39,565 nucleotides of DNA from contig JAVECS010000025.1 of NCBI GenBank assembly GCA_051942165.1, positions 1 to 39,565 of the forward strand. Reading direction: 5' to 3'. Below, in pieces: positions 15,709-38,205 of this stretch; the stretch's first letter is position 1, and the number at the start of each line of letters is the position of its first letter. A model generated the notes under the pieces. The model saw nothing but the letters and a program-made list of their open reading frames with translations, was not told the origin of the DNA and ran no database searches. Position numbers and translations under genes: made by a program. Source of the DNA: Circinaria calcarea. Its lineage: Eukaryota.

Positions 15709-16124
15709 CACGCGAGTATCAACACTTGTACCTCAGCGTACTCCGGTGTTTGTGGTTAATCTCAGTGGGAGAGGGTCTCCGATCAACTTGATAAACTCGG
15801 CTGGCCGCTTGTACTCGGAGTCAACAAGCGAGGTAAGCAGAATCTGCACTTGCACGAATAAGGAAGAAGTGCGAGGGATCAGGCCGATAGGTCAATGTAT
15901 TCACCGGTCTCCCGGCTACAACAAGTAATTTTTGATACAATCGGCATTCAGCAAGAGTATCGCCATTTGCTGCTGGGACTAGCTTGGATTTGGACAATTA
16001 GATAGCCTCTCATCCCTGAGATAAGTAATATATATACAGGCTTACTTTAACTAGAAGAAGAAGAAGCTTCCCTATACCGAGCAGATTTCTTCAATGCGGA
16101 TATATAAAAGGATGTCAATGCATG

Positions 16125-17585
16125 CTAATGACAACTAAAGCTTGCGTACTTGGCGAACTCTGCATCTACCATTAGTCTGTGCATCTCCTCCTTGGCCAAA
16201 GTGATCAGAATCTCAAAGCCACCATATATCCGGAGGGGCAGTACCATGCACCTCCTACAGATGACGTCAAACTCTTCCCGTGGCGGTCGTACTGATTCTG
16301 GCCTTCCCCCATTACCAAATGCCTTTCCAAAATTTAGCTCAAACAGGGGTAAATTCAACAAAGACGTCGCGCAGAGCTCAGCGCCATCGAAGGTTGCAAA
16401 TGGGAAGGTGAGTTGGTTATAATCGGGAATGCAAGAGGCAAGGGCATATGCCGAGTGTACTCTAGAAGTTGTAATTGTATCAAGAGACGTTCGGATCGCA
16501 CGGGCAATTTGACTAAGCTCTGTAGCCGGAGACGTCAAGCTAGAGAGCGGTAGGAAAGTTGTACCGATCAAGATAACGTTTCCCAGATATGAAGGAGGAA
16601 GTTCAGTGGAAAACTGAGCTCGACCATCAATGGTGGTATCGAGGATTGCAGTCTCTTCGTTCGTCCCGATAGACTGTCCTGGTGGGAACCGCGCCGACAT
16701 GATACATTTCCATAGGAGAGCCATAAGAGCGTCATTAGCAGAGATTCCGTGACCTTCATGTGAACACTCGTGTTTGAGATCAGCGAAGGACGTTGCGGAT
16801 ACATAGAAAATACTCGTCTCCATTAGCGGCGCATTTCCCGAGAAGGCCGATGATGGTGCTTCAGGTGCAAACGAATCTGGGGTAGTAATCATGTTTGCCA
16901 CTGGATTTAGGCCTAGAAGCCGCCATTGCGGTTCCGAATTGTCAAGATATTCAGGTGTGCGGGCACCGCCCTCGGCCAGCCAGAGCTTCGTCAGTAACTC
17001 CCGATCAAAGCTCTCGGCAGGGATATCAAGGAGCGGAGTTGATGATTCTTGTTTCTGGAGTCGCTGGCAATGGTCGGCCCAAACCTTCATAATCGTATTC
17101 AATCCCGATCCATCGGTTACTGAGTGCCAGATTCCCACCCCGAGAAGACAGCCTCCATCGATAAAATTGGCCTGTGTTACCAAAATATCCGTTCCCATGG
17201 CCAGGTTAGGTCTGAATGCCGCTGGAAGCAATAATTCCCCATCAAGCTCCGCCTCCGGCAGGCCAGCATCCATGAGGTCTTCGTAATTCATTGTTGCGGT
17301 CATATCTTTGTATCGCAAACAAGGCATCGATTCTGTGTCAAGACATGTTGGTACCCGCATTTCCAGCTGCCCAGGTTTTGATTCAGGCGCATCAAGCGCT
17401 CGCACACCTAGCTTTCCGGCCAAAAATGGTATTTCCACTACCGTTTTCGCCAGTGCCTCTTGCATATACTCATACACCACTTCAGGCTTGTGATCAGGCT
17501 TGGTGGGTATGCACAGTATAAATTTGGCGTAATAACGAGCCATAACGTTGTCGAGGGGACTAAGGGGAATGTGCTCAGCAGTCAT
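16125..17585 (-). CDS. CoA/ACP-dependent O-acyltransferase, Tri101/BAHD-like transferase family
   Basis: Intronless ORF from ATG 17585 (MTAEHIPLSPLD); QANFIDGG, catalytic HxxxD (HSVTDG), YLGN and a DFGWG-like LNFGKAFG motif. Confidence 0.92.
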   Translation of the reverse strand: MTAEHIPLSPLDNVMARYYAKFILCIPTKPDHKPEVVYEYMQEALAKTVVEIPFLAGKLGVRALDAPESKPGQLEMRVPTCLDTESMPCLRYKDMTATMNYEDLMDAGLPEAELDGELLLPAAFRPNLAMGTDILVTQANFIDGGCLLGVGIWHSVTDGSGLNTIMKVWADHCQRLQKQESSTPLLDIPAESFDRELLTKLWLAEGGARTPEYLDNSEPQWRLLGLNPVANMITTPDSFAPEAPSSAFSGNAPLMETSIFYVSATSFADLKHECSHEGHGISANDALMALLWKCIMSARFPPGQSIGTNEETAILDTTIDGRAQFSTELPPSYLGNVILIGTTFLPLSSLTSPATELSQIARAIRTSLDTITTSRVHSAYALASCIPDYNQLTFPFATFDGAELCATSLLNLPLFELNFGKAFGNGGRPESVRPPREEFDVICRRCMVLPLRIYGGFEILITLAKEEMHRLMVDAEFAKYASFSCH

Positions 17586-18557
17586 GATTGAGATAAATCG
17601 AAGTATGAGTGTCACGCCGTTCCAGGAGGAAGATTTAGATCAGCAAGTGATTTTTATAATAATGGAATTGTGAACCTGAAAACTAACCTCATATAACTTT
17701 TGTGTTTTTGATGCGGAAGATTTCTTAATTCGGAAGACACCGATATGCTTCGCAGACGAGGATTGGAGGTTCTTTGTGAGTATAAACCTCGAGTCCGCGA
17801 AGGAGATGTTACCATCGTATAAGTGGTGAGTCGATAAATAAGCAGATCTGTATTATGATTGATATTTTTATTCATTGTTGATAATCTTCTATAGCCTATC
17901 CACGAGCCGTCTGCGGATAGTACCAGAGTTGCGAAACTTCTGTATATACAGAATACAAACTCCGTCGGCTATGATACACCGGGGGTGTATTCTACCACAC
18001 GGACCAGTTTTGTATGGGAAAACAGGGGCCAGGGTCAGTATTATTTATAATACAGGCCCTGTGTATTCCCGCCAGCGGAGGATGTACTCGGTATTTCGTG
18101 ACCCCTGAGCTTGCTATCGCAATCAGGAAAGCCATAAAGACTATGCCCTAAGCGTACGAATGTCTGCTTATCCAGGACGATGTGGGTAGAGTTACCAGAA
18201 GTCGGTTTTATTCGTTTATAGAACTGAACGTTGATCCAGCATTTCATGATCGTCCAGGAAAGCGGGGGTGATCAAGTATACTCCGGTATAACTATCACCG
18301 CAAAAAAACGATGCCGGGGATAGAGACGGCTCGGCCTATTATAAATAAGGTTACTCCTCGTCCTGGGTCTCTTAAACGGAGAAACGAAACGCTCCTCGTC
18401 ACGAGAATGGGAATTGGGAAGTCAGGCTTGATTCTCTGTCTAAGCTATGTTTATGGCTAAACTGGTGACTGGCAAGCTGGTTAAGAAATGTTGCTAGCTA
18501 TCTCTCTTCAAGCCAAAACATGTATATGGTCGCAATCTTCTCAGCATCTTCACTCTA

Positions 18558-19670
18558 TCACCCTTCAGTAGTCTTATTGTATCGCTTCGTTGTATGGCTC
18601 CATAGTTCATTCCCACTCATTTGGTATTCCAATCCCTTCATGTAATCTCGAAGGCCTGGCGAAGGTTTGTCCTTGCTTTCCAACCTCGCTACGAGCTGCT
18701 GGTGACAAAGCTCCCACTCCCTGCACATGGCCCACAAGATGCGTTTGGCAGCCTCAATGCTGACGTCCACTTCCCTTGCCATGATCTGAACCGATGAGCA
18801 GAGTGCACCACCTTCCTTATGGCCTTTTCGGGCGGCAAGGACTTCTTTCTCGTAGCTGTAAATGTCGTTGACGACAGAGATATGCTTTGAGCAGTTGAGC
18901 TCAATGGGTCTGGCGATTGCTAATTCCGCAGCAGTGATATGGATAGCCATGGAGTAGCGCATCAGAGCGGAGAGCAGCCTGAAAATTTTAGCCAGTCCAG
19001 CAAACAGGTCTTTCATGCTAGGTCTTACGCTTTTCCAACATCTTTCTCGCGATACTCAAAATACTTTCCTAGGCCCATGAGCTTTATGCGAGTTCTATCC
19101 GTTTGTGCTCTCATGAATACAAAGACTGGTTCAAGGATTTCATCCGCCATCGCTTTATCATGCGCACGCATGCTCTCCCAAAGATCATAGATTATGTATT
19201 CGACTGCAACGGACCGATCAGGAAGAACATCACCTCGAGATATTGGAATTAGCTTCTCATTGTACGCCGAGCCATCGTCGAAGGACATATCATCAAGGAC
19301 ATCTGTTTCCATAAGTTTCCTCGTTAAACATGAAAGGACGACGCTCACCGTCTATGAGAAAAAGGACCGTAAGGAGTCGGCATGCAAAGTGGATTCTATC
19401 ATCCAAGGCCTGTGGGAAGTAAAGGCATGTAACCCGCGAAAAGCCGGCGGCAATAAATTTTTCTTTGGCTTTTTCAGATTCAAACTTCCAGTGCTGGAGG
19501 AAGTATCCATCAACTTCTTTGGACACAGAGTCGACGAGGGGATGGCAAAGTGGTTTGAAAGGGGATGGTGAGGGTGTATATAACTGTAAATTCGCCGAAG
19601 CTGGTTTCTTAACTTCCGTAGCAATGATCAAGCGGTAAAGCAGACTACTAAAGTAGCTAAGGAGAGGCAT
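18558..19670 (-). CDS. ari1: Aristolochene synthase-like sesquiterpene cyclase
   Basis: Three exons (19670-19349, 19302-19029, 18978-18558). Contains GFSRVTCLYFP, DDVLD, RAQTD, YREKDVG, NSE motif NDIYSYEKE, GLEYQMSGNELWS and RY; closely follows the Aspergillus terreus/Penicillium aristolochene synthase sequences as I recall them. Confidence 0.93.
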
Positions 19671-20609: not shown

Positions 20610-21584
20610 ATGGGCGGGATGAAGAATTATAACCCTGACAAGGACGTTCCTGATCTTTCAGGCAAAGTTATTTTCGTTACAGGAGGCTAGCTCTCCTCCA
20701 CACCGCTCTGATCGATCGCTGACGTTTGATGTATAGGTACTGCCGGACTTGGTTCCGAAACGGTTCTTGCTTTGGGGAAACACCACCCGGAACACATTTA
20801 CTTCAGCGGTCGCAATCCCCAACGAGCTACTGCACTCATTAGCCGGGTCAAGGCTGCTGCACCGGCCCTGAAGCTTACCTTCGTCGAGTGTGATCTTACT
20901 TCTCTTGCATCCGTTGCAGCGGCGGTCCAGCAGTTCGCCTCTCGACGTCTGGATATTCTCATGTGTAATGCTGGCATTATGGCCGTTCCTCCCGGCCTCA
21001 CCGAGGATGGATACGAAGTGCAGTTCGGTACCAACCATCTCGGACATGCCTTGCTCATCAAGCATCTCCTTCCTACTTTACTCCAAACCGCGGAAGAACC
21101 CCACTCGGATGTGCGAATTATCCTTCTGACATCGCTTGGATTCCGCGGCCACCCCAAGGGCGGAATCGTTTTCAAAGACCTCAGGACTACGCAAGACACC
21201 GGAGCATTCGGCTCGTGGATTCGGTATGGTCAGAGCAAGCTCGCCAATATCCTCTACGCCAACGAGCTTGCACGTCGCTACCCGAACATTACGTCTCTCT
21301 CCATCCACCCTGGCGTTGTTGAGACGGACTTGGTTGGGAGCCTGGGTTTTGCCAATAAGGCATTCGTCTATGTCGCAAATATGGGAAAACTCTTGAAACC
21401 GGCGGAGGGTGCCTACAACCAGATTTGGGCGGCTACATGCGATAAGGAAAAGGATAAGCTGGTTAACGGGGCGTTCTATGAACCTATTGGGTTACTTTCC
21501 ACCAAACTTGATAAAACTTCGAAGAGTGAAAAGCTTGCAGAAGAGCTATGGGTCTGGACAGAGAAGGCGCTTAAGGATTACTAG
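20610..21584 (+). CDS. Short-chain dehydrogenase/reductase (SDR-2, retinol dehydrogenase/WWOX-like)
   Basis: MGGMKNYNPDKDVPDLSGKVIFVTG|GTAGLG, CNAGIM, QFGTNHLGH, YGQSK, HPGVV; requires intron 20686-20736. Confidence 0.92.
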
Positions 21585-21830: not shown

Positions 21831-23731
21831 TTAGCTGCCGAAGCGCCTTCTGATCCGAAAAGGGATTTGACCCTTGGGTGGCAAAGCTCCCAATCCAAAG
21901 AACTCCATATTTGGATCTGGCTTGAATCCCTTCTCTGTACGAAGCTCCACGTCATAGTAAGCGCAAAATATGGCGAAGCTGCCGATTATCTCCTGCTTGG
22001 CAAAGTGTCGGCCAGGGCACATGAATTGTCCGCCTCCATACGGAACCCAGCCACCAGCAAGACCATCCATGGAAAAGACTGCCTTCTTTGTCGAGCTCGA
22101 GCCCTCTATAGGCGCCTCTATCTCGGAGTGCTCCAACGAGACAGTGGCTCTTTTCAGCGGACCACTTCGAGGATGATCTGGATAAATCAAAAACCGATCT
22201 GCCCAGAAGTCGTCCAGGGCATGTACATTCTCAACATCTTCTCCAGTGCTCCACAAATCCTTATTGCTTGCTGCCGTGCGAGTTGACAAACAAATCAGCC
22301 GCTTCTTTCGGAACAGCCATTCGCCCAATCTGAAATCTTCATGTTCGGGAGTGCGGTTTAGGAGAAGGGCGATACGCAGCCGCAATGTTTCCGCGTAGAT
22401 TGACTGCAGAAGTGGGTTCTCACAGAGCTTAGCGATATCGAATCGAGCGTTCCCGGCGCCTGCGCTGGTTGGAAGTTTTGCACTTGCTACTTCCTCGCTG
22501 GTACGGGAGATAAGGTCTGGATCCCTGTATATTTCAAGTAGAAACCAGGCGGCGCAGACAATTGCATTGGCGTTTGCGCTGGCAAAAGTTATCTATCCAC
22601 AAGCCCATGCGTGACGAGATCATGGATATATGTACTTACGCAACCATTAAAGCCAGATCTTCTGCCGCAAGAGCATTGTCGTTCATAGCATCCATAGCCC
22701 TACCGAAGTTTTGCCTCACTTTCAGATATTTCGAGCCCCAGTACTCATCCCACTCAACGTCGTCTGGACCAGTCTTGGTGTAGTCCGAGTGTTCACGAGC
22801 GAATCGATGCCATTTCTTTATACTTTCCAAGACTCTGTCGCGTGCTCTATACGCACTGGGAATCATCCATCGCGGTAACCCTTTTAGCAAGGTCGGTGTT
22901 GCTGAAATATACATCCAAAATTCTTCTGTGAAGGTAGGGTTCAATGAAAGGAGGTGGGGACCAAACAAAGCTTCGGTTGCGCTACGGAAAACCCGATTCT
23001 GCCAGAAGGTATATAAATCGGGTAAGGCCTTCCAGTCATGAGTTATCCGACCATCGCCGTCAAGGTCCCGGCTGAGAATCGCCATAAAGCGTTCAGTCAT
23101 CTGCTGCAAGGGCCTGCCAGATAAATATTTATGAGCTGCTAAGTGCTGGTGATAGTAGATCCGATGTTCTGGCCTCACTTCAGTACCAGGCAACGGTTTG
23201 GGCGCAATACCAGAGTCGTCGGCTCGATAGAGATTGACAGCGCCAGAGGGAGTGCCAAACATATTCTCCATCGTGATAGCAATGCCTGGCTTGGGCGTTA
23301 GGCTCCGCGAAGCTTTGAGGAGCGTGGTAAAGTGCTCTGGGGCTGATACGAGATATCCCTGCTGCGGCCCGATCTTGATCTGAACTGGAATCGCGTCACC
23401 ATATTTGTCTCTGCGATTCCGAATTCGTTAGGACTATGGGCAATATTCACGTCACAATCAAAGCCTCAAGAACTGGACATTACGTTACTTGAGATATAAA
23501 GCCGGCTGTGTTTCTGATAAACGGGATTAGACTCCCCAAAAATGGGATCCAATAGGGGATAGTCGGTGGCTCTCGCCCGAGTTTGTTACTGCGGATGGCA
23601 CGTATTGATTGGAAAGTCGTGATCAGGAAAGTAAAAGTTGGCACCAGAAAAGTTGCAGCACCGATCCAGAGCTTCCAATCCACCGGAGCCAAGTCTGAGA
23701 GGCTATCGTAGAAATCGTTTGTCCGCAACAT
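21831..23731 (-). CDS. Cytochrome P450 monooxygenase (P450-3; CYP7/CYP8-like clan)
   Basis: TM anchor followed by PPTIPYWIPFLG; I-helix LMVAANANAI; ETLR; ADRF; heme motif PYGGGQFMCPGRHFA; two introns. Confidence 0.92.
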
Positions 23732-24824
23732 TCCGAAAACCGGGATGGAACTGAAAGAATGAAATTCTGGGGAAGCAGGAGAGAATGATAACGCTAGGAT
23801 ATGGAACAGATAATTAACAGCAAAGGACTGCTCTATAGACTCCAAACTCAGTCTCGACTGTGGTGGTTTAGGTAGAAAATCCGCAGCATCATCCATCCTC
23901 CATCTCTGAGGATCCCTCGTCGATCGGAGGCCTTCCATTCACTTCTCCATCCTCGATAGCCTCGATTCGGGGCTGTACCAGGAAAACATTGTGATGATCC
24001 CGGGGAACGAGGCTCTGCATTGTGATTTGGCGTTTAAGGTAAAGCGTCGGAGTGTTTCGGCAATTGCCGAATTCAGTACGCGATAGATTTCGGCGCATGA
24101 CCGTTTGGGCTACCTCATGGAAGTGCAGGGATAGAGAATCACCATACCATAATAGTACCAAGGGTCATCCGGAAAAGGTTTACTTCCACCCCTCGGAACG
24201 GAACAGCGAAAACGGGCAAAGGCTCAGAAATTGTTAGCTCGCTCCGACGATTTCCGAGAAGGGTTAGATAGGGGACCTGTCAGGGCCCCGGGAGGACAGC
24301 CACATATCCAATATGGAGTAATGTTTACGAGATTTCTTCGGAGCAAAGCATACACAAAGGAAAGGTCGGTGCTCAGCAGATGGTGTCCCTACGGAGTACC
24401 AACGGTTTGGCGGCCAATAATGGAGAGCTATATGAACACGCATGGGATCCCATATTATTTCCGATCTTTCTGGTATTTGCGAAGCTCAAGCAGGCAACAA
24501 CGGCCTGGTAAACGTCCATTAGGAGGATTGGCGTAGCACATGCGCCTTAATTATCGTTTGCACAATGCGGCGCTTGGAGAGTAACTCAGCACGGTTTAAT
24601 ATAGTTGAATCAAATTCCGCGAAGACCTCGGCGCGAGAGTGTTGATTGATGGCTATTGTCTTGCGTGCCTCCCTTGCTAGCCCTACTTCCTGGGCATACC
24701 CTCTTCCGTTGAGCTTTGCTATCGACAATGTGCCCTGGGCGCTGCATGAGTTTGACTGGAGATATGCAGTCATACTGGTGGACTAGAATCATGATGCCAA
24801 GATCAACTCCACATATCCGTTTGT

Positions 24825-24961: not shown

Positions 24962-25961
24962 TTGGTACGTTTTGAAACTAGGTAGTAATAAGTGTGGTTC
25001 GTAGTACCGAAAAAGGTTTATTATTTACCTCTTTAGCTGGAGCTTCTCTGCCCTTCTGCATGTTGCCAAGTTTCAAGGGTGTATTTCCCTGGAAGAGCTT
25101 TCATTGTCGAGCTCATAATCCAAGATCGATAAGACCCGCTAGCTAGCCTGTGAGCATCAATCAACGTGCTTGGCTGACTAGGTAGTATGAGTCTCTGGTG
25201 GAGTGGGGCTAGTGAAGATCTTGCGAATCCGAGAGCTCGGACAAAGTCACGATCCTTCAGATGCAGCATTGCGGATTGCCACTAGGCTTACTCCGTGCTT
25301 ACGACATGACCTCTACAGACTATATGCTGATTGGTCTGCAGGGTAAAGATCCGCTCCACTCCGAAGGATCTATTCCCAGGTAGGTCCCTTCCAGCATCCC
25401 GAGTCTGGTGCAGAATGCTTCTTCTGTATGCCAGGTACTTGTACCTGCATATGGAGAATTGTCCGATCGATCAGCCTAAAGGCACTAGTTGCATATCAAT
25501 AATACTGTAGTTTTCCCATCGATATATTAAGAGTGCTAATGGCAGCAAGGGATGAGCAACGCTGACGACAACTGAGAAGGCAGAAACGAATACGACGAAA
25601 CAGGATGTTGATACAAGCCATCTCGATCGGAGGTTTGGCATACAAGGATAGTATTTGGTTTGCCTTAATCCGGCGCCGATAGCCCACTTGAGTAGTTTGA
25701 AAACAAAGCTAACCAACACTGTTAGATGTCACCTGAAAGATGGACAGAATAAGGCACACACTTACTCTTTAGAGGCTAAATACTGCGCCTCCCGACTTCC
25801 AGGCTCTCGCAACTCCTTTCGGCCTAATTCAGCCAGCCTCCAAGCTTGATCGGCGAGGCTGAAAAGAAATATATAAGTCATTCGAACGACCATGCTTGCT
25901 GATCGATCCAACGTCTGGGCTTATACTGCGTTCCCCTCTGTTCTTGAAATCCTGCGATATC

Positions 25962-27713
25962 ATGTTGGCACGTTTCGGCTGTGTAGTGGCTGCTGCCTTT
26001 ACTCTGGTAGGCGTGACTGGTGGGTTCTTGACTTCCAGAAACGCCAGTGGAGTGGCCGGCTGTATCGGATTGGCCAGTATGTTTCCTCAGAAGCTATTCT
26101 GGCCCAACACGACCACATATATCAACGAGTCAACCCGTACGTATCCTTCTTTCTCATTCATGTCACCCTCGCTGCAGAATCTCGTTTTGTTCTTGGCCTA
26201 CCCTCATTAGCGGGTTTGAGGCATGCCTTGTGCTAATTTTTGTTTCTATTTCAGGTCTTTGGTCTGAGACTTGCCTACTCTCCCCGAACTGTGTTTTCAC
26301 ACCCAGTGATGCGGATGATATAGCAAAAGCCCTGAAAGTCATTCGCGAAACCAACTCCCCGTTTGCAGTCCGAAGTGGTGGCCATATGCCCGTCCCTGGT
26401 GCCGCGTCAACAGATAATGGTATTATGATCGCCATGACGAATATAAATACCAGAAACCTGATACACAATCAGTCCATCGCCCAGCTTGGTCCGGGTCAGA
26501 TCTGGCAAGACGTATATGATTGGATCTCAGCCTATGATCTTGGCGTCGCCGGTGGAAGATATGGTCAAGTTGGTGTCGGCGGCCTTTTAACAGGCGGAGG
26601 AATAAATTACTTCGGTAATCGGTTTGGCTGGTCTTTCAACAGCATCGTCCAGTACGAGGTTGTCGTAGCGGATAGCTCGATCCTTCAAGTCAACGCCAGC
26701 TCGCATCCCGATCTTTTTTGGGCATTGAAGGGGGGATCCAATAATTTTGGCATTGTGACACGTTTTGATATGAAGACTTTCCCGGTTACCACCGCATATG
26801 TAGGAGGAATAGTCTGGATCCCCGATGCGCTGCCTGCATTTCTGGAAGCTGTAGGCAATTTTGTTCAACCGGGCGGAGGGTCGGAAGATCCTCTGGTAGC
26901 AATCAACCCTGCTATTGCACTTACACCAGCCAATGGAACCGTGGAGCCGACGAATATTGTATTTTATCAAGGAAATGAAACTGCGCCGGCAACACTGGCA
27001 AACTTTTCCGTTATTCCAGGAACACTTTTCAATGATACTGGAGTTAGACCTAGCTGGATTTCATTGCCGGCGGAGCTGAACCAGCCGGCATTTGCCGCTA
27101 GAACCTCAAGGTAATCGTTCAAAATACTCCAAAACTGAGTCTTCGACTTCTGATATATCTACTTCTCTTCTAGGCAGCTTTTCTGGTCCGTTGGTATTAA
27201 ACCGACGCAAGCGGCGATAAATCTTGCAAATGTTACAATCGTCGGCGGCGCTCTCTCACAGCTGCAGCATATACCCGACCTAACACTTACATTAGCCTAT
27301 CAACCAATTACCAAAGCGTGGCTAGCAGCAGCACGGGCATCTGGGGGTGATGCGATTGATCTTGATCCTGCAGATGGGGGATTTATATGTTCGTTCTATT
27401 CCACGCCCTTATATTTTTTTTCCACGCTGATAAGCCAGCGATTTTAATATCTGCCACATGGTCTCACGCAACCGATGACGCCGATATCAACGGTTTTATG
27501 CGAAGTGCGACCTCGACGCTGATACAGCAAGCCAAGGCAGCAAACCTATATTACCCGTTCATTACCCTAAACGATGCAGGCAGAGGCCAGGATCCTTATC
27601 CGCTGTATGGCAAGGGAAAGAGTCTTCCACGGTTGAGAAAAATTCAAAAGATGTACGATCCTAACAGGGTTTTTCAGGACCTCGAGGCAAGCGGCTTTAA
27701 ATTAAAAGCGTGA
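25962..27713 (+). CDS. FAD-dependent oxidoreductase (berberine-bridge/VAO family) with N-terminal signal peptide
   Basis: MLARFGCVVAAAFTLVGVTGG signal; PNCVFTP, FAVRSGGH (covalent-FAD His), VGVGGLLTGGG, DLFWALKGGSNNFGIVTRF, C-terminal YDPNRVF...GFKL; three introns. Confidence 0.92.
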
Positions 27714-28352: not shown

Positions 28353-30301
28353 TTAAGGGACTCGCTCATGAAACCGGACCATTAATGCGGGTTTAGCCCA
28401 CATAATCCAGACTGCGCTTGAACCCAGCCAATCGAGCCCTTTATCGACAAGCTCCATGTCGTATCTCCATACTAGTTTCGCTAGAGTTAGATTGATTTCC
28501 ATGATGGCGAAGCTGCGCGGCAGATTAGTCTCTAAAGGCTTGATGTATTAGTCGAAAACATGTGTGGTGAAAACGTACTTGCGTCCGAGACAGCCTCGGG
28601 ATCCCAAGGAGAAAGGCTGACTTGCTTCCTTAATGTCGGTACAGTCGGTTTCCAGCCAGCGTTCTGGCTTAAACTTCATAGGATCATGAAAGTTACGCAT
28701 GTCGTGCGTAACAGACCACGCGCTTGTATATATTTCTGTCTGTATGAGGAGGAATGGATCAGTGACCCAATCATAAAGCTATCTCTGTGATAAATTCAAC
28801 AACATACATCTTTGGGTACCCAGTATCCATCTACAAAAATACCAGGAGATATTCTAGGGAAGCCTTGAGAGCCTGGTGGGTAAATTCGTAAACCTTCCTC
28901 AATAACAGCTTGAAGATACGGCAACTGTTGTGCTGCTGTAGCGTTGATAGACTCGTAACTTGGGAAACAGCTGCGCACTTCTGCTCGTAATTTATCATAA
29001 CATGCATCTTCCTGCAGCAGGTAAAAGGTGGTTGCGGCGAGAAAAGTAGCAACAGTCTCACCTCCCGCAATGCTGGTCCTGATCAGCGCTCGCCTCTAGA
29101 TGTATATCAGGGTGTTTTAAACATACACAAGTGTTGATACGTGAGCGGTCATCTCTTCTTTTGCAACTTCTCCACTTTCCACCTTGCTCACAAGGGTGGA
29201 TAGGAAGTCTTTCCGCGTTGACTTACTATCCAATCGGCTGTACAAGCAATATCAGCTTCTGATGAGCATTCAAGCGTACAAAGTAGCTTCCTACCGTGCT
29301 ACTTTCTCTCTACTGTACATTGAATTTTGATTTCGCACCGCAACCGTAGATGGGAACAAGGCCTTGGTGATACTTGATATCAACGGAAAACGACGTAAAT
29401 TATCGGCGACGGTAATGTAGAACAGATGGCTAAGAATTAGTTCCTGCCAGAAATGTGGTTTCCCTAAGAACCAATGTTAAATTCCGTGCACAAGAAAATC
29501 TGACTTCAATACGGAGCTCACCGTTCTCGATACAATGGAATGATTCTCCAAATGCCATATCACCCAGGACATCGAAAGCGTTCATTTCGTACCATTTTGA
29601 CATATTCAATCCGTCTGAGCCAGGGCCACCATCTTGCCCTACTTTGAGAACAAAAGCATCTATGTTCCGTGCAACAATACTCTCTTGCTCAGAGAGTGCC
29701 TTGGTTGAGAAAGCCGAAGATAAAGATTTCCGCATCTGATTATGTTTCAGGGGATTCCGCTCTGATCCAACACACAAAGATTCAAAGCCAGCCCCGTACA
29801 TATCATAAAACTCGCTTTTGATGACCGCCCCCTTATCTGCCGGTCGATGCCCATAAATCGCTTTCCAAGAGGCAACAGAAGCAAAAGACAATTCGTTGGG
29901 CGAAACACGAAAGACAGGTCCTAGGGATGAAGTCAACTTAGCGTAGCAAAAGCTGCTGGTGTACCTGCATACCATATATCTGGTGTTCTCGATCTATGGC
30001 CAGATGGATACGCCCACTCATCGAGTGCAAAAGCCTCCATAGCTATTTCTAGCGATAAGATTTCCCATTGATCATACTACCATTGTGACGCCATGACTCA
30101 CCAGGCTGCAGCGTGCAAGAATTGGCCCTGGATAACCTGCAAGGGGGTGAAAGTAGACATTATATATCATCGATGTTGCTATCCACAAAAGAGCCTAGAA
30201 TTAAAAGATAAGAATTAGCTCTTTTTAAATGCCCTAGATATAAATAGTGAACCGGTCTTACAAACCATTGTCATAATTCCTCCTATAAGTGAATACATCA
30301 T
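28353..30301 (-). CDS. Cytochrome P450 monooxygenase (P450-4; CYP65/Tri11-like), many introns, start codon uncertain
   Basis: YNVYFHPLAGYPGP, GPVFRVSPNELSF, GDMAFGESF, AHVSTLV|IAGGET, EGLR, PERW, heme motif QPFSLGSRGCLG; ends VRFHERVP* at 28353. Confidence 0.88.
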
Positions 30302-30457
30302 TATTCTATTTACCCTCTACTTATCCTCCTTTAAAGTAGTGACCAAGGCTATGTTCGGACTCAGATCGAGTTTTTCTAGTTATATTAATTTCCGCTGGGC
30401 TTAAATAATTAAAAGGCTGAAACAATCTCATGTTCTAATTCTAGTATTGATACCGGC

Positions 30458-30516
30458 CGGAGAGTCACCGTGCTCAGCATAGTATGTCGGACCGCTACCG
30501 ATTGCGGCAACGTCCG
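30458..30516. promoter_or_regulatory. Candidate Zn2Cys6 binding sites (three CGG-N6/7-CCG) in the divergent P450-4/HMGS promoter
   Basis: CGG-N7-CCG at 30458 and 30488, CGG-N6-CCG at 30505; similar pairs at 24058/24091 and 35639/35665. Confidence 0.4.
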
Positions 30517-31175
30517 AAAATAGTTATGGCCGGTACACCTGACTTCTGTTTAGCATCTTTCCCAGGCCTAGGAGAATGGCAATAAAAAGACGGAACCAAT
30601 CAGTATGTTTTGATCCCGATTATCTACCTTAGTTTAGCTATATATTTTTATTCCAAATCAGGAAGTCTTAGGACACTATGCAGGGTTTACCAAATCGCAC
30701 GGCATCCCACCATATCAGGATGGGAAATGGAAACGTGAGTGCATTACCATTACTAGAGGAGTACAATCTGCAAATGGAGATACTATCTCTTTTGTCCCAG
30801 GTCCCTCTTCCTTACAGATACGGTTGATATTGTTAAGCCGGGCTCGGGAAAATGCTTCTCACGTGATAGCCTTTTCACATCAAACTCACCATCAAGCTGT
30901 GGGGCGGAAAATACCGGGAAAGGTTATGGTGACACTGTCAAGAGAGATTGACCTTAGGCTTCCAAATTTGGCAACGCGTGCTCCGAGCCGTAACCAAGCA
31001 TAGCGGTTGGGAAAGGCACTACTGCGTCCTCGCGAGCGAGCCAGAGAACTCAAAGAGCTGGATATATACTTTGGCCTCATCGATTCTTCTTCCATAAGTT
31101 TGGTCATTCTGTTGGAGCTGACTCGTGTGAATTCTTCAAGTCCAAGGCTTAGGGTTGCCTGCCAGAGAGGAAACG

Positions 31176-32821
31176 ATGCTGTCAAGACCGAGAGATGTAG
31201 GCATCAAGGCAATTGAAATTTACTTTCCAAGTCAGGTATGCTGAGATCAAGGTTGGATTCTATCCTTCGTGATGATGGCCAACAATTGAGACTGCAACAG
31301 TGTGTCGATCAGACCGAGCTTGAGAGATTCGATGGCGTTAGCCAAGGCAGATACACAATTGGTCTGGGCCAGACGAAGATGAGCTTCTGCGATGATCGCG
31401 AGGGTGCGTTGCAAACAGCTCTAGCCAGAGCTGGCAATCATGACTTATGAAATGACAGATATCTATTCAATGGCGCTAACAACTGTCTCGTCCCTTCTTC
31501 GAAAGTATCGGATACATCCCGAAAGCGTTGGACGGCTTGAAGTGGGAACAGAAACCCTCCTTGACAAATCGAAATCTTGCAAGACAGTCTTGATGCAGCT
31601 TTTTGGGAGTAACACGAACATTGAGGGTGTCGATACCGTCAATGCTTGCTACGGAGGCACCAACGCTGTCTTCAATTCAATCAACTGGATTGAATCGTCT
31701 GCCTGGGATGGCCGAGATGCTGTTGTTTGTGCTGGAGATATTGCCCTGTACCAAAAGGGGAATGCTCGACCCACCGGTGGAGCTGGTTGTGTTGCTATGC
31801 TTATTGGACCCGATGCTCCTTTGGTCTTCGAACCTGGGATGCGAGGGACTTATATGAAGCACGTCTATGACTTTTACAAGGCCGATCTGACCTCAGAGTA
31901 CCCCTTTGTTGACGGTCAATTTTCTCTCAAGTGCTATACGGAGGCAGTGGATGCCTGCTACAAGGCGTATCATGATAGGAGGACTTCCCTCGAGCAAGGG
32001 CACCTACCAGTGCCCGAAGACGGGCATGCGATGATGAACGACCACGGCATTTCTAAGGATCATAGCGATTTGAACGGGGATGGAAATGCTGATGGAACTA
32101 GTAACATAAATAATGATATGAGATCTAGCAAGAAGCTGCTGTTGGATCACTTCGATTATTTGGCCTTTCATACGCCAACCTGCAAGCTCGTCTCAAAGTC
32201 CTATGCGCGGATGCTGTACAACGATTACATCGCCTCTCCGACACATCCGCTCTTCGACTGCCTCCCAGCTGAGCTCCGAGCTATGGACTACGAGAGATGC
32301 CTCGGCGACAAGAAGGTAGAAAACGCGTTCCTGGCTCTTAGTAAAGAGATGTTCGACGCCAGAGTCCAACCCTCACTTCAGGTCCCGAAAATGTGCGGGA
32401 ACATGTACTGTGCTAGTGTCTACGGGTCTCTGATCAGCCTGTTGAGCAATATACAGAGCGAGCAACTGCGCGGCAAGAGGATAGGTATCTTCAGCTACGG
32501 AAGTGGCTTAGCTAGCTCACTGTTCAGCTTGATCGTTAAGGGAGATGTCGGCACTATTGCGCACAAAGTCGACCTTCATGCAAGGCTCGAGGCCAGAAGG
32601 ACTGTGCGACCGGAGATATATGAGGAAGTAAGTCCCTCGCCTGCCGAAACATGTATGATGATAGTGTTGACCCGAGCTCCCAGATGTGTCTGTTGAGAGA
32701 AAAAGCTCACTTACAGAAGAACTCCAAACCAAAGGGAAATCAAGAGACACTTGCCAAAGGTACTTACTACCTTGTCGAAGTAGACGAGGTTTTTAGACGC
32801 AAGTACGAGGTTAAGGCATAA
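31176..32821 (+). CDS. ERG13: Hydroxymethylglutaryl-CoA synthase (ERG13-like), cluster-embedded copy
   Basis: [20 protein letters not shown]|, YTIGLGQ, catalytic Glu in EVGTET, Cys in NACYGGT, His in FHTPTCK, GNMYCAS, FSYGSG, ending RRKYEVKA*; three GT-AG introns. Confidence 0.95.
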
Positions 32822-33482
32822 ATAGTCTCACATCTTTATATAATATTGTTCTTTGCTATTGTAGAGGCGAAAGCAAAGCATAAACGGTGGACAATTTGGC
32901 CATTAAAGCAAATACTTTTCCCTGCATTGTCTAGAATATCTAAATAAGGACAACAAGTGAATATGAATTCGAATTCTCAACCGGTCACGAGAGCTACAGC
33001 GGAAACATTGCAAGCTGAAACAGAGAGGGTGTTGAAATGCCTTTTGGTCACGTTGTGCCTAAGTATTGAAAGGTGAATTTGTATGGGCTGAAGCTATCAA
33101 ATTACTATGGGATTATAGTGGTATTTATGATAGTCATGACCATGCAGCTTGCCCACTTGATACGGAGCAGCAAACGAGAGAACAAAGGTTTCAAGAATAC
33201 CTGCGGGAATTCTCTGCATAGAATGCGCCGATGCTCGGAGCTTCTGCATGCAAGCAGCGCTTTCCACCAAATTCTAACAAAAAGCTCTAGTTAGTAATCC
33301 TCTCTCGCGTAGGGCTTTCCCATCCCAGTTTAAACATGTGTTGAAAGGGTGATCTGGTGGTCGAGGCCCGATCCGGAAAACGAAATGGGAATAGAAATTG
33401 GGAGGGGGAATATACATCAACACCGAGTGCTCTTCTGGTATATACCGAGAAGGACCTGAGCTATTGAAGGTCGGTGGGTACC

Positions 33483-35388
33483 CTACTCGACACCAAGTCC
33501 CAATTCTCTCACCCGTGAAACCCGTACTCTTAGCTCCGGTTTCTGCCACAGTGTCGTCATCCTTGAATCGCGCTGCCAATCCAAGTCTTGATTCAATAAG
33601 ATCATATCGTACGTGAAGTACAGCTTTGCCAGGATAGTGGTCAGTTCAATCCAAGCCAGACTACAATTAAGCGCTAAGTTAGTACAGGGGCTGAAAGGGA
33701 AAATAATCCTGCTGCGCAAGGTACAAAGAGAGGAATGAGGAAAGGGTCGAACCTGCGCCCAAGACACCCTCGTGGTCCAAGCGAGAATGGCTGCGTGGCT
33801 TCCAACTGGTCTGTCTTGTTTACTCCTAACCACCGCTCGGGACGAAAAGATAGTGGAGCTTCAAAGTGCTTGGAGGAGAGGCTCGCAGCTACCGGATTTG
33901 TAGAAACGATCGTCTATTGAAACGGTTGAGCATTGGTAGCTTTTCGACTTGGGTGGCCCGCAAATAACATACTCCAGCAGGTAGATAGTAACCATCCACG
34001 GTGTCTCCCCCGTCAGGTACGACACGGGGGAGTGCAAATGGCAAAGGCGCATACAATCGCATTCCTTCGAGGGCCACGGCATGGAGGTATTTCAATTTCG
34101 CCGCGGCAGTCGCGTCGATTTCCTCATACTTGTTGAAAGCCGAGCGGATTTCATCTTGTACCCTCTGCAAAATTGGGGGGTTTCGCAGGAGGTAGTAAGT
34201 TATACAGCTAAGGGCGGTTGCGGTCGTTTCACTGCCCGCCGTACTTTGTATTGATCAGTCATGCTTTGCATCTGGTCTTACCGATACAGGATAACTCACA
34301 CGAAATCTGAGGCGTGAGCAGCTAGCTGAACGTCGCTTATATTATTGGTGTCTCGATCGTCCAAAATGCGGGTGAGAAAATCCGGCCGATCACTAGGGTG
34401 TTGAATTCTTCTAATAGTGAAAGTGAGCTATTTCTCTATCTATATTCCATTTATGGCCTCAAGTGCAACCTTTGAATTAAATCCAATGTATGACGTTCAT
34501 GGATCTTCGTATCCCGAATAAGGTTTTCAATGGTTCTCGGCATTATAGCTTTGAAAAGCTTTGCAATGATAGGAAACCTATTGAAGGTATCTGCCAGTGC
34601 ACCCTGCCTTAAAGCCTTGGTTACAAGAGCGATCCAGAAATGCACTTTGCCTAATATATGCGAGTTAGTACGCTGCTTGTACCCATAATCAGAAATGATC
34701 AGAGTATAGGTTAAACGAACCAGACTTGACACCACCAAACGACCGTCCAAACGCCAAACTACCGATAATGTCAAATGTAGTAAGGTTGAACCACATTACA
34801 ATATTAGCACCCTGTTCCCCTGAAGCGTACACGCCCAATTGGGCGATGAACTCGTCGACAACCTTATTCACCAGACCCTCTTGGTCTTTCAACGACCGAT
34901 CTGAAAACGCGTGTGAAAGGTACTTCCGCATCTTACCATGTACAGCCGGATTCCGTTCGCTGACGATTGAATAAGCTTGGTCTGCAAAGCTCCCGCCGTC
35001 ATAGAAATCGCTTTTGATGAAGGGGCTATGCCCCGGCCGGAAGCCGTAGATATCTTTCCATGAACCAATAGAGTTGAACGAGAGCTCGTTGGGAGCTGTG
35101 CGGACTACGGGTCCATACTTCTCATGTAGCTGGAGGATCTTATACGGTTGGCGACCGCCGAGAAACCAGTATGAGTGGAGTAAATTACTCCAGGCGGCGA
35201 GGAAGGGGCCGGGAAATCGGTACAAGGGGTGATTGATATGTCTCCAGAGAGTTGCTCCTAGGGTAGCAAGCAGGATCTGCGATTGATTTAATTGGATAAA
35301 CGTGACAATCGATCAATACCCAGAGCCTTACGGACACGGCAACAATCAGCGATCCAGTGTGTAGTCCGAGATACGAGGAAACCTCCAT
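33483..35388 (-). CDS. Cytochrome P450 monooxygenase (P450-5; CYP65/VerB-like)
   Basis: HPLYRFPGP, YGPVVRTAPNELSF, FDIIGSLAFG, AHASDFV|TAGSETT, EGMR, PERW, heme motif QPFSLGPRGCLG; multiple introns. Confidence 0.9.
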
Positions 35389-36156
35389 CTTCCTTTCTTT
35401 CCAAACAATATATTCGACACTTTCAGACAGGTCCTTGATGGTTTAAACCAGACGATCAGGGGCGAACAGGTCAGGTATAGGTAGCACCGTGTAATTTCTT
35501 GAAGAGTTGATGGCAAAAGTGAAAGCCAATTAAAAGAAACAGAATGACTACTCACTCGTACGGAAGAATCAGCTTAAACAACCAACGGTTGCTCGAAATG
35601 TTTCTGCGCTGTACATTCCGCAGTCGAGCTTGGAGTATCGGAGGTATACCGGCTCATCCCAATTCGGTAGTGCCCGAATCGCTCAGCGTATGCAACCTTG
35701 AGATGCAAGACCTCTGACTTCTTCTCTGCATGAAATACACTGCCTTAATACTTGCCTGTTCCTAATGCTCATTGCAATATTTACCTTCTGGTTATGGCGA
35801 TGGTGAAGCATAGGAAAGCATGCTGGTCTTCGCCTACCCAGCGGAAACTATTCTAGTGGCAATAAGACAGGGCGGATTTTCTGTCAAATTCTAAACAACT
35901 GCAGATGTCAACGCTATTGCCTCCCTGTGAAATTCGATATAATGCCCTGCTATCACAGCTACTGGCATAGTTAGCTTTCTCATCAGATGGCGTTATAGTA
36001 ACTACTTTCGAAGGTCTTCTGAACTCAAGTATGAAGGCAATCCGCTCATCGGCCCATATAGGTAGATCATGGACGATGCTAGCCTATTTACGTCAAATAT
36101 CCAAACGGTCTAATACCTTACAAAAGGAGATGAGCGCCACAATAGTTGATAAGCAG

Positions 36157-37772
36157 TCATGAAGGATCCGTACTCCCCATTCTGCCTTGAACCTCGGTGC
36201 GTTGTAGCTTGGCGGCGGTGTCTCTAATTTTACGCTCCGCAGTAAGTAGTACTGTATGTTGAGCTCCTCGAAGTTCTAAAGATGTTACCATCTTGATCTT
36301 CGCCATGAGACTTCCCAGTCTCTTCAACTGCAAGAAGATCAGCACTCTAATTAGATGCTCCCATTCTTCCCGTTGGTCGATTTCGTAATTGCCGAAGAAA
36401 ACCTTCCGACGACACTCGTCACCCTTTCGTGAGCTCCTCTCTTCAATCCCATGCTTGGAGCCAAAGCAAACATGGGGTTGCCAAGTGTGTTGCAGAAACC
36501 TGGACGCGATTCTATCACACATGGCTACCAACTTTTCGCAGACAACAGCAAGCAACATCATGTTTTCCGATCGAGCGGTACATATTAGGCAACGTAGCAT
36601 AGTATTGCAGCGATGCAAAGCCTCTTTGTGATACGCTAAAGCTGAATCCAGTATCGCCGAGTCAATAGCGTTACTCCGGTACTCTGTTTCTTCGAGTAGG
36701 AGGACAAGCGTCTGTAGGCATTGACAAGACGAGTGTGCGTGGTATGATGATGGAATCATGCTCTCCGCATTCTGGGTAATCTGAGCCGCTCGATTGCCGT
36801 AGGTTAGTGGCGGTGTGCATATGCCCACGTTATCCCGGTGTGTGGGCTGCTGCAGATGTAGTTTATCCGCGTGCGCCATAGGATAGGCTGTTGAGGAAGG
36901 CGAAGGTAAGACCGAATGTGGCCGAGTCATAGGAGTAAGTATGGCTTTGGTGGATAAGGTAGGCCGGCCTGCACACGATTGGGCAATGTGCTGTTAGTCA
37001 AGTTTCATCGATTTATATTGGTTGGTACATAACAGCATACCCTGAGTATGGTCTGAAGAAGCGCTATTGCTGTCCAGGATTGGAGAGCCGAAAGGAAAAG
37101 AGTCATTCGCATTACTATCTGTGTGAAAGGTGTAGTCTGGGGTCGTCGTGTTATAGTTTCCTACACCGTGGGAGCCATAATCGGGCATGATGTCTCGCAA
37201 CATCTGGTCTGAGATTATACAATCTTCCTCAAAGCTCGGCACTGGCGACCCAAGTCCACCGAGCATATCATCCTCTGCAGGATCCCTGCCCTGCTCATGT
37301 TGAAACGGATTATTCTCTTGCCTTGGCGGTGTCCCTATTTGCTGGCCTACTGCGGCCTCTGTTGACTGTGGAGCAAAGACATTCGTCGAGCCGAGCTGGG
37401 TTGGAGGAGCTGCTCCTGACTGGGACGATAGGCCCTTTTCCTGTAACCGTGTGTCGGGCCGCTTGCGCCGTCTTGTACCCTTTCCATCCACAGTTTCCGA
37501 ATACACGCAGGAAGTCGCTGTGGCTCTGCATCGATCACATCCAGACTTTTGGCCGCTACATCTGAGCTGTTAAGGGGAGTCCTGGTGATTAGCTATGGAG
37601 CTTTACGCAGAAGTTGCTATCGCAACGGTAGCCTAACCTTTTTGAATCGACACTTGTCACATGCAGAATGCTGAGGAACATGAGCCCCAGCATCACCGAG
37701 TAAAGATCCATTGGGCCGCTCTGTGAACTCGCTACCGTTACGCTGCGGGTCGTAACGCAAGGTGCCGAACAT
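36157..37772 (-). CDS. Zn(II)2Cys6 pathway-specific transcription factor
   Basis: ATG at 37772, MFGTLRY...HSACDKCRFKK|LRCSGQKSGCDRCRATATSCVY; all six Cys are present once an intron is removed. The C-terminal CQCL...CNTMLRCLIC region resembles AflR-type cluster regulators. Confidence 0.9.
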
Positions 37773-38205
37773 TGTCTTTCGCCCGAAGTCGATTGTAGAT
37801 GACTAGGGGACGAGCAGCGAGAACCCGAACTCTCTATATGCAAGGTGGAAAAGATATCTTGACCGGTGACCAGTGTCGACTTCTCTACACAAGTCTCTCG
37901 TAGACCACCAAGGGACTACATGGAGTTTACCACAGGCCCAAGTTCCGAGTAGTAAAAGGCGGCTTGGCTGGGCGATATATGTTATGTAGCACAGCATTAC
38001 AGCGGTAGATTGACAGATTCGAATGCGCTCAGATGGCACAGTTAGGCTTTTGAACTGCTTGTAGGGGCCAATATTGCCAGTAACGTAGGGAATGCTTGCT
38101 GGCTCGTGGCAAGACTTGATTGACCGAACTGATACAATCCTGTGGGCATTGATCCTACATTCCACGTGCCAAGGATTCAGCCGCCTGAGGTTTGGCGATT
38201 TGATA

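Follow-up and report, generated by a model that had tools for sequence, protein, structure and literature searches.

The hymeglusin (1233A) cluster includes a polyketide synthase of the highly reducing type (HR-PKS) with the domains KS-AT-DH-MT-ER-KR-ACP, an HMG-CoA synthase (HMGS) as well as a cytochrome P450, and these three genes make up the whole cluster. The PKS makes the inhibitor, a beta-lactone; biosynthesis proceeds without the HMGS, and sensitivity rises when the homologue g431 is knocked out (PMC12291444). The HMGS resistance gene of this cluster also appears in a table of PMC13515044. In Alternaria, HMGS genes are found in the AK-toxin (AKT4) and ACT-toxin (AALTg11755) clusters together with an HR-PKS and a P450, and a review outlines a proposed role of these enzymes in beta-branching. 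A different arrangement, also outlined in a review, is that of the basidiomycete Stereum hirsutum, in which a hirsutene synthase-HMGS fusion (HS-HMGS) lies within a cluster that carries P450s and oxidases.

Among the eremophilane clusters, those of group C (eremoxylarin/xylarenal type) are described in the main text of a survey as combining an aristolochene synthase with an HR-PKS that makes a long acyl chain, a PF02458 acyltransferase, several P450s and dehydrogenases (PMC13736955). The terms "HMG" and "mevalonate" are absent from the main text of this survey of 371 clusters, and the literature that we searched, judged by titles, yielded no HMGS in an ascomycete sesquiterpene cluster.

Here we describe a gene for HMGS, the first committed enzyme in mevalonate synthesis, located inside a biosynthetic cluster of the lichenised ascomycete Circinaria calcarea. 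The stretch of DNA analyzed, hereafter the window, is an entire 39.5-kb contig of a C. calcarea MAG and is occupied throughout by one cluster, with genes for an aristolochene synthase, an HR-PKS, a PF02458 acyltransferase, five P450s, two short-chain dehydrogenases (SDRs), an FAD oxidase, an AflR-like regulator and the HMGS.

Results

The HMGS gene extends on the forward strand from position 31176, where the start ATG is placed, to position 32821, where the TAA stop codon ends. It includes four exons (31176-31235, 31301-31403, 31459-32627 and 32684-32821) separated by three introns of 65, 55 and 56 nt, all with GT..AG borders; the resulting coding sequence of 1470 nt encodes 489 aa without internal stops, and the ends of the NCBI protein model (P0002, 518 aa) are wrong. 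Both Pfam domains of the family were detected in the product of exon 3 (P0001, 389 aa), HMG_CoA_synt_N with an E value of 6.8e-60 (202.3 bits) and HMG_CoA_synt_C with 2.2e-83 (280.6 bits), above the respective gathering cut-offs of 25 and 25.1. The N-terminus (24 residues) and the C-terminus (RRKYEVKA before the stop) agree with those of full-length fungal HMGS, and in the alignment the 489-aa protein is colinear end to end with eight orthologues.

The motifs GTET, NACYGG and FH.P.CK all carry their Glu, Cys and His. These residues (E31, C63 and H237 in exon 3) are invariant across the HMGS alignment A1 and align onto the catalytic positions of human HMGCS1 (2p8u), which we take to be E95, C129 and H264, together with the catalytic roles assumed for them. 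The human enzyme is matched with an E value of 4e-107, and the ACP-dependent HMGS-like proteins PksG and CurD with 8e-16 and 5e-20. We conclude that the gene is an intact HMGS of the ERG13 type; this had been claimed previously from the catalytic Glu/Cys/His, and the 489-aa frame, the two Pfam domains and E31/C63/H237 bear it out. The enzyme is predicted to be catalytically competent and cytosolic.

Conserved columns were defined as those at least 95% conserved across 124 fungal HMGS. The window HMGS keeps 164 of these 171 columns, and none of its seven deviations falls in a catalytic motif; the median of deviations in the 124 housekeeping HMGS is one and the maximum seven. Since 164 columns are kept and the catalytic motifs are unchanged, the protein would be a working enzyme that has not been remodelled. 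Over the aligned columns it is 70.0-74.6% identical to eight housekeeping HMGS of Pezizomycotina, as compared with 70.1-87.2% among those eight, so that its identity lies at the low end of the normal housekeeping range and its divergence is not outside it. A strong acceleration, suggested by a BLAST identity of 67%, was discarded, given that this value mostly reflects an insert and the identity over aligned columns is 70-75%. The sole close relative found, P0003 (82%), is also the only protein of alignment A1 that has the same two indels: a deletion of 2 aa before the loop of the catalytic Cys, and an insert of 25-30 aa rich in Asp, Asn, Gly and His that lies in the variable linker.

The highest identities of the window HMGS are to proteins of Lecanoromycetes, and the nearest named protein cluster is that of Ptychographa xylographoides (P0013), of the same subclass. 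From these identities the ancestry of the gene is native (Lecanoromycete), and an origin by horizontal transfer was rejected. In a quick tree of 55 rows the backbone is unresolved, with 21 of the 51 inner branches open, and the window HMGS forms with P0003 a clade with 100% support, a stem of 0.31 and a tip of 0.15; long tips occur in other Ostropomycetidae as well (Thelotrema 0.34, Agyrium 0.37). A clade of the window HMGS with the housekeeping HMGS of Agyrium, a member of the same order, was not rejected by the AU test (p 0.198), and therefore the window HMGS could be an ordinary orthologue.

The left part of the cluster begins with P450a (568..2077, reverse strand; Pfam p450 in three ORF pieces), which adjoins the HR-PKS gene (3132..11413, reverse strand; NCBI tag Q9187_000382). 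The PKS has the Pfam domains KS-AT-DH-MT-ER-KR-ACP and is 100% identical to P0232; its characterised relatives (46-49%) are those named squalestatin tetraketide synthase, LovF and AzaB, which we take to be side-chain synthases. Next are the first short-chain dehydrogenase (12462..13411, forward strand; adh_short 3.6e-21), P450b (13755..15732, reverse strand; Pfam p450) and, on the reverse strand at 16125..17639, a PF02458 (BAHD/Tri101-like) acyltransferase with the domains Transferase (1.7e-30) and TRI-like_N, whose nearest solved structure is a trichothecene 3-O-acetyltransferase. The terpene cyclase gene (18558..19670, reverse strand; Terpene_syn_C_2) is followed by the second short-chain dehydrogenase (20730..21584, forward strand; adh_short 3.2e-15), by P450c (21831..23938, reverse strand; Pfam p450, with the N-terminal ORF read) and by an FAD-linked (BBE-like) oxidase (25863..27713 with an approximate 5' end, forward strand; FAD_binding_4 4.1e-23, BBE 5.8e-4).

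The cyclase matches solved aristolochene synthases with E values of 8e-53 and 2e-47, is nearly identical to them over 99 residues of the printed alignment and has the motif NDIYSYEKE; it is thus identified as an aristolochene synthase, an enzyme that consumes farnesyl diphosphate (FPP). The sequence-only reading of this DNA had noticed a cyclase here without recognising it as an aristolochene synthase, an assignment that places the locus among eremophilane-ester clusters of a type already published. It had also stated that neither an FPP synthase nor an HMG-CoA reductase accompanies the HMGS; this is confirmed by a Pfam scan of 47 window ORFs, which revealed no polyprenyl synthase and no HMG-CoA reductase domain. 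Enoyl-CoA hydratase domains were likewise not detected in these 47 ORFs.

The HMGS gene is flanked by two P450 genes. On its left, P450d (28353..30300, approximate ends, reverse strand; Pfam p450, exon pieces read) is oriented head-to-head with it, and the region between them (30301..31175), delimited by the N-terminal exons of P450d and the ATG of HMGS, separates the two start codons by approximately 875 bp. On its right, P450e (33274..35390, approximate 5' end, reverse strand; Pfam p450 on ORFs 33889-34254 and 34689-35312) lies tail-to-tail at a distance of about 450 bp. Both the location between two cluster P450s and the divergent promoter common to HMGS and a P450 had been proposed earlier, and both hold. 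P450d and P450e are 42-47% identical in three pieces and P450e is the nearest paralogue of P450d in the window, so that a pair of paralogues brackets HMGS. Further to the right is an AflR-like Zn(II)2Cys6 regulator (36157..37802, approximate ends, reverse strand) with an intron-split six-Cys pattern, for which the Pfam matches Zn_clus (E 0.037) and AflR (E 0.0055) are both below the Pfam cut-offs. The HMGS gene is therefore inside the cluster, with cluster genes on both sides, and not at its edge.

No enriched motif common to the window promoters, including the P450d/HMGS intergenic region, was found. The AflR-type site, taken by us as TCGN5CGA, is not enriched: of 14 sites in the window one is in a promoter, against 3.4 expected. 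A de novo search of the window promoters for k-mers and dyads returned only effects of AT-rich composition; the best dyad containing CGG, CGGn2TAA, had a p of 7e-5, uncorrected for the tens of thousands of tests made. The sequence CACCGCC was observed upstream of 24 of the 38 non-redundant housekeeping genes for HMGS; the window lacks it, but so do L061, the closest locus, and several others, and its absence is for this reason uninformative. The SRE and SrbA motifs, as we assumed them for this comparison, are rare upstream of the housekeeping genes (1/38 and 3/38, respectively).

The location of the window HMGS is unlike that of the housekeeping loci. At 24 of the 33 housekeeping loci with wide flanks a DUF7820 gene is a neighbour of HMGS, whereas the window has none; a Pfam scan of seven of the nine loci that lack DUF7820 (39 ORFs) revealed nothing but ordinary neighbours. 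In 80 HMGS loci from JGI metagenomes we found neither neighbours resembling the window cluster genes nor an orthologue of the window type, the best identity being 67-68%. The window HMGS has the same Pfam domains, catalytic Glu/Cys/His and colinear termini as the housekeeping ERG13/HMGCS-type enzymes of Xylographa, Lambiella, Acarospora and Ptychographa, and differs from them in its deletion and insert as well as in its placement in a secondary-metabolite cluster and not beside a DUF7820 gene. A second HMGS of C. calcarea was not present among the best 120 matches (named proteins) of a housekeeping query, which did include 11 sister MAGs of the project. The gene tags of the 39.5-kb contig run from _000382 to _000390; the MAG is probably fragmented, and given this a missed second copy is plausible.

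Regarding the described systems, the window has the core of group C, namely an aristolochene synthase, an HR-PKS and a PF02458 acyltransferase; its five P450s are candidates for Emp6C and the C-specific P450. By gene content, the cluster matches a group-C-like eremophilane type, to which the window adds the HMGS when compared with the group C clusters described in the survey main text. In gene content it resembles the nghhB/g431 system, where an HMGS homologue likewise shares a cluster with an HR-PKS that methylates and with a P450; in contrast, the window HMGS is inside an aristolochene synthase cluster and is not part of a compact layout, since approximately 20 kb and eight genes separate it from the PKS. 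With the hirsutene system, as reviewed, it has in common that within a cluster the HMGS is physically linked to the pathway of a sesquiterpene synthase; nevertheless, HS-HMGS is a basidiomycete fusion protein with a hirsutene cyclase, whereas in this lichenised ascomycete the HMGS is a separate gene and the cyclase an aristolochene synthase.

Discussion

We tentatively favour, at a little short of even chances, the view that the window HMGS is an additional copy dedicated to the cluster that boosts the FPP supply for aristolochene synthase. The gene would have been recruited into a group-C-like eremophilane cluster, in which the aristolochene synthase is accompanied by tailoring oxidases, by an HR-PKS for the side chain and by an acyltransferase, and the bidirectional promoter that it shares with P450d would drive its transcription under the AflR-like regulator. 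When the cluster is turned on, HMGS would convert acetyl-CoA and acetoacetyl-CoA into HMG-CoA, and the extra HMG-CoA would direct carbon into the mevalonate pathway, giving more FPP for aristolochene synthase. Within this scheme we infer the existence of a second, housekeeping copy, the co-regulation of the gene with the cluster and its effect on flux.

The intact enzyme, its embedded position, the presence of an FPP-consuming cyclase, the non-housekeeping locus, the indels common to P0003 and the hirsutene synthase-HMGS precedent speak for a role in supply. Against it are the missing second C. calcarea HMGS among the best 120 matches of the housekeeping query, the ordinary divergence, the allowed Agyrium clade, the lack of a common promoter motif, and the fact that no HMG-CoA reductase or FPP synthase stands alongside HMGS in the 47 ORFs. 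Given that the main text of the eremophilane survey does not use HMG or mevalonate for any of its 371 clusters, eremophilane clusters can evidently do without an HMGS of their own.

A second explanation, which we consider unlikely, is self-resistance: the cluster product would inhibit HMGS, and the window copy would sustain the mevalonate pathway by insensitivity or by dosage. As the inhibitor one would expect an acylated eremophilane bearing electrophilic groups; less likely is a polyketide of the HR-PKS, a source that the earlier resistance proposal had not weighed. The hymeglusin cluster provides a direct precedent (PMC12291444), and all three of its gene types occur in the window. In addition, the survey describes oxidation and epoxidation of the side chain in group C eremophilanes, which makes reactive products plausible, and because its main text does not report HMGS, the presence of the gene here may be product-specific (PMC13736955). 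The lineage-specific indels and the number of deviations at conserved columns, at the top of the housekeeping range, point in the same direction.

On the other hand, the catalytic motifs carry no substitution and most conserved columns are kept; hence, of the two roles put forward by the sequence-only reading, supply and self-resistance, both have precedents but a resistant variant finds no support in the sequence. The distant PKS is paired with the acyltransferase and the cyclase, not with HMGS as in the compact three-gene layout, and it is nearest to squalestatin tetraketide synthase, LovF and AzaB. Its proximity to PKSs of the side-chain type and its pairing with the PF02458 acyltransferase fit the acylation of group C, and this favours a single pathway to a terpene ester over a separate polyketide that inhibits HMGS. 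We know of no eremophilane that inhibits this enzyme. It is quite doubtful that an acylated eremophilane represents a new chemotype of HMGS inhibitor, with the window HMGS and its 82% relative P0003 being the protective copy of the producer.

It is unlikely that the window HMGS is the sole ERG13 of C. calcarea, a housekeeping gene lying among the cluster genes or captured by them, with a sterol and general isoprenoid role and at most a secondary benefit for the cluster. The result for named proteins, in which no other C. calcarea HMGS appeared among the best 120 matches, is what this would predict, and the ordinary level of conservation, the typical N- and C-termini, the best identities to Lecanoromycetes with Ptychographa as the nearest named cluster, and the AU test, which permits a clade with Agyrium, agree with it. 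However, cluster-type genes are present on both sides of HMGS, the conserved DUF7820 neighbour is missing, and it would be a large coincidence if a random housekeeping gene in a terpene cluster happened to be a mevalonate enzyme. Other cluster-borne precursor or target enzymes known to us are extra copies too. In the hymeglusin cluster the HMGS is a homologue that biosynthesis does not need (PMC12291444), and in a MAG that is probably fragmented a copy could well have been missed.

Finally, it is highly improbable that HMGS contributes a building block of the metabolite itself, either as HMG-CoA serving as acyl donor for the acyltransferase or by acting on a carrier-bound beta-keto intermediate in the beta-branching of a polyketide side chain (cf. 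AKT4 and the ACT-toxin HMGS): the window does have an HR-PKS and an acyltransferase of the CoA-dependent type, but the toxin enzymes are proposed, in the review cited for them, to act with an HR-PKS, a P450 and an enoyl-CoA hydratase, the last of which is carried by those clusters and lacking in the window ORFs, the C-methyltransferase domain of the PKS can make branches by itself, and the HMGS is far closer to HMGCS1, a primary-metabolism HMGS that works on acyl-CoA, than to the ACP-dependent PksG or CurD.

Conclusions

Genes of primary metabolism located in clusters are used to spot the target of a pathway or its bottleneck. If the window HMGS is a supply gene, fungal terpene clusters can recruit HMGS besides HMG-CoA reductase and prenyl-diphosphate synthases, and the gene would be a useful part when lichen pathways are expressed heterologously. 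Should it instead confer resistance, the product would be the second natural class of HMGS inhibitors after hymeglusin, and the locus would represent a target-labelled lead for a new inhibitor of the mevalonate pathway from a lichen. The chemistry of this lichen cluster can be predicted.

Structure of the HMG-CoA synthase gene

The HMG-CoA synthase gene (HMGS) is located at 31176-32821 of the forward strand and comprises four exons (31176-31235, 31301-31403, 31459-32627 and 32684-32821), assigned by reading the DNA and checked with a script. The three introns (65, 55 and 56 nt) are all of the GT..AG type, the coding sequence of 1470 nt encodes 489 residues without internal stops, and both termini agree with full-length fungal HMGS. 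The exon-3 ORF alone (P0001, 389 aa) matched the Pfam domains HMG_CoA_synt_N (6.8e-60) and HMG_CoA_synt_C (2.2e-83), so that the sequence-only reading, which had placed a complete gene here, was correct in coordinates and description. Exon-3 residues E31, C63 and H237, the catalytic Glu/Cys/His, are invariant in an HMGS alignment (A1), and their columns coincide with the corresponding positions of human HMGCS1.

The NCBI gene model (P0002, tag Q9187_000390, hypothetical protein of the Circinaria calcarea MAG) is a 100% match to HMGS; the window takes in a complete contig of this MAG, its longest, at 39565 bases. This model (518 aa, 31176-33221) is mis-spliced: it lacks the conserved first 20 residues because its ATG falls in intron 1, and it drops the true last six codons (terminal KYEVKA and stop) for a downstream exon, at about 33100-33221, in which no HMGS homology was found.

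The gene cluster around HMGS

Gene order was obtained from Pfam scans of 47 window ORFs and from ORF reading; cytochrome P450s (P450a-e) and short-chain dehydrogenases (SDR1/2) are named from left to right. The series starts with P450a (568-2077, reverse strand) and a highly reducing PKS (Q9187_000382, KS-AT-DH-MT-ER-KR-ACP, 3132 to about 11413, reverse), followed by SDR1 (forward), P450b (reverse), a PF02458/Tri101-like acyltransferase (16125-17639, reverse), a terpene synthase (18558-19670, reverse), SDR2 (forward), P450c (reverse), a FAD/BBE oxidase (forward), P450d (about 28353-30300, reverse), HMGS, P450e (33274 to about 35390, reverse) and an AflR-like Zn2Cys6 regulator with a six-Cys motif (about 36157-37802, reverse). 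An intron splits the zinc-cluster motif of the regulator (ACDKCRFKKV / RCSGQKSGCDRCRATATSCVY), which leaves the Pfam matches of this protein sub-threshold (E 0.037 and 0.0055). The 1.9-kb region between P450c and the oxidase holds a GA-rich microsatellite (24853-24961, period 8-20), which accounts for the strong purine skew of bin 24001-25000; ORFs 24156-24536 and 24610-25017 had no Pfam match. The same was true of the contig-end ORFs, 2-349 (forward) and 39093-39497 (reverse), and therefore the contig does not define the true cluster borders.

The window genes form one cluster of recognisable type. The terpene synthase matched the solved aristolochene synthases of Aspergillus terreus (E 8e-53) and Penicillium roqueforti (E 2e-47), and is thus identified as one of them. 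Uncharacterised relatives of the PKS were found at 55-59%, and the characterised ones, at 46-49%, are named in the source as squalestatin tetraketide synthase, LovF and AzaB, makers of acyl side chains that acyltransferases pass on. This lichen aristolochene synthase is nearly identical to the A. terreus enzyme over 99 aligned residues, a notable likeness across fungal classes. A survey from 2026, covering 371 eremophilane clusters of fungi, defines a group C of 37 clusters, with 7 BC hybrids in addition; it is characterised by an aristolochene synthase, a long-acyl-chain PKS, group-specific P450s and a PF02458 acyltransferase, and its products are C1-acyl eremophilanes, e.g. eremoxylarins and xylarenals (PMC13736955). 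With its aristolochene synthase, PKS and PF02458 acyltransferase, the window cluster fits this definition as worded in the main text of the survey, where the terms 'HMG', 'mevalonate' and 'self-resistance' do not occur.

HMGS and P450d are arranged head-to-head, with start codons about 875 bp apart, and HMGS and P450e tail-to-tail, with a gap of about 450 bp, in keeping with the two flanking P450s and the divergent promoter noticed from the sequence alone. P450d and P450e, on the same strand with HMGS between them, are each other's closest window paralogue (42-47% identity in three pieces), all other window P450 pairs reaching at most 31%; judged by this similarity, they look like a tandem duplicate pair in which HMGS now lies. 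Given these P450s on both sides and the regulator further right, HMGS is internal and not at the cluster edge. Neither FPP synthase nor HMG-CoA reductase domains were detected by Pfam in the 47 ORFs, as had also been stated.

Relationship to other HMGS proteins

Among about 5.8 billion clustered proteins, the only close relative of HMGS is P0003 (82%, on an 8-kb contig); all others were at or below 70% by BLAST. Both proteins have a 2-aa deletion ahead of the catalytic-Cys loop and, in the variable linker, a 25-30 aa insert rich in Asp/Asn/Gly/His. Over aligned columns, HMGS is 70.0-74.6% identical to eight housekeeping HMGS, with Lecanoromycetes highest, and these eight are 70.1-87.2% identical among themselves. 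At the 171 columns with at least 95% conservation in 124 fungal HMGS, it deviates seven times (median 1 and maximum 7 in the 124), never in catalytic motifs. Apart from its insert, this is an ordinary HMGS.

Circinaria is lichen-forming and belongs to Pertusariales (Ostropomycetidae, Lecanoromycetes). A quick tree built from 55 rows has an unresolved backbone; in it, HMGS and P0003 paired with 100% support (stem 0.31, tip 0.15), and other Ostropomycetidae tips were likewise long. The nearest named cluster was Ptychographa, of the same subclass, and a clade of HMGS with the same-order Agyrium HMGS was not rejected by the AU test (p 0.198). Identities, conserved columns, tree, proximity to Ptychographa and AU test together show HMGS to be a native gene of this lineage that evolves slightly fast, with strong purifying selection acting on it. 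The phylogeny does not separate an orthologue from a paralogue of the housekeeping gene (ERG13).

Context and promoters of other HMGS loci

As a comparison set, 80 HMGS loci from JGI metagenome contigs (58-68% identity to HMGS) were used, and none was of the window type. A DUF7820 gene adjoins HMGS, on either side, in 33 of the 80 (L001, 5870-6967; L061, 5988-8174; and 31 others). Flanks are wide (6.5 kb or more upstream and no less than 4.5 kb downstream) at 33 loci, and 24 of these carry the gene. It is absent from the window. This neighbour could help to mark the housekeeping copy by synteny. Nine wide-flank loci lack it; seven were scanned with Pfam (39 ORFs), the other two being near-duplicates, and the neighbours were cyclins, transporters, helicases and similar; P450s, PKSs and terpene synthases were not seen beside HMGS. 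A tblastn search with 24 window cluster ORFs against the 80 loci (1e-8) gave no match either; therefore, HMGS amid window-like cluster genes occurs in 0/80 of this sample.

The AflR site was not enriched in the window promoters, and a de novo search of these promoters returned composition effects only. The sequence CACCGCC lies upstream of 24 of 38 non-redundant housekeeping HMGS genes (roughly 10% expected by chance), and it is absent upstream of the window HMGS and at the closest housekeeping locus. Frequent positions of this element, relative to the ATG, are -12/-14 and about -115. The form (C/T)TCACCGCCTC recurs within the upstream 900 bp of housekeeping genes (L016, L024, L025, L045, L046, L060, L017, L068, L071-L073 and others), and a second upstream element, ATGCAGGAAC, is found in a subset of these loci.

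Possible roles of HMGS in the cluster

The favoured reading, which we hold tentatively, is that HMGS is a dedicated extra copy supplying the FPP pathway: while the cluster is on, it would raise the flux from acetyl-CoA through mevalonate to FPP. It is preferred because the enzyme is unaltered and the cluster cyclase uses FPP, because HMGS and a tailoring P450 (P450d) have a bidirectional promoter in common, and because there is a precedent, described in a review, of HMGS fused to hirsutene synthase in a basidiomycete cluster.

The main rival, that HMGS protects against the cluster product, is possible but doubtful. The hymeglusin cluster is reported to combine an HR-PKS, HMGS and a P450, its HMGS being dispensable for synthesis and a homologue protective (PMC12291444; Kato et al. 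2020, as cited), and all three gene types are present in the window. In contrast to that cluster, the window PKS lies 20 kb from HMGS, is akin to proteins bearing the names squalestatin tetraketide synthase, LovF and AzaB, and has an acyltransferase and the cyclase as its partners; moreover, the HMGS active site is unchanged. The sequence-only reading had offered supply or self-resistance; it is partly supported, by the internal position and by precedents for both.

That HMGS is the sole ERG13 of the fungus is likewise possible but doubtful. Using a Xylographa housekeeping HMGS as query, no C. calcarea protein appeared among the 120 matches listed (70-100% identity); 11 of these were from sister MAGs belonging to the same project. 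The gene tags of the contig, _000382 to _000390, suggest a fragmented MAG, so absence from the annotation is weak evidence against a second HMGS. A building-block or beta-branching role, as a review reports was proposed for AKT4 and for the HMGS of the ACT-toxin cluster, is unlikely, since no enoyl-CoA hydratase domain was detected in the 47 ORFs, the PKS carries a methyltransferase domain of its own, and HMGS resembles CoA-type enzymes far more closely than ACP-type ones.

We did not find in print an HMGS in a lichen eremophilane-ester cluster. The locus is a case of a primary-metabolism enzyme recruited into a gene cluster, with HMGS placed in an eremophilane-ester cluster of a lichen.
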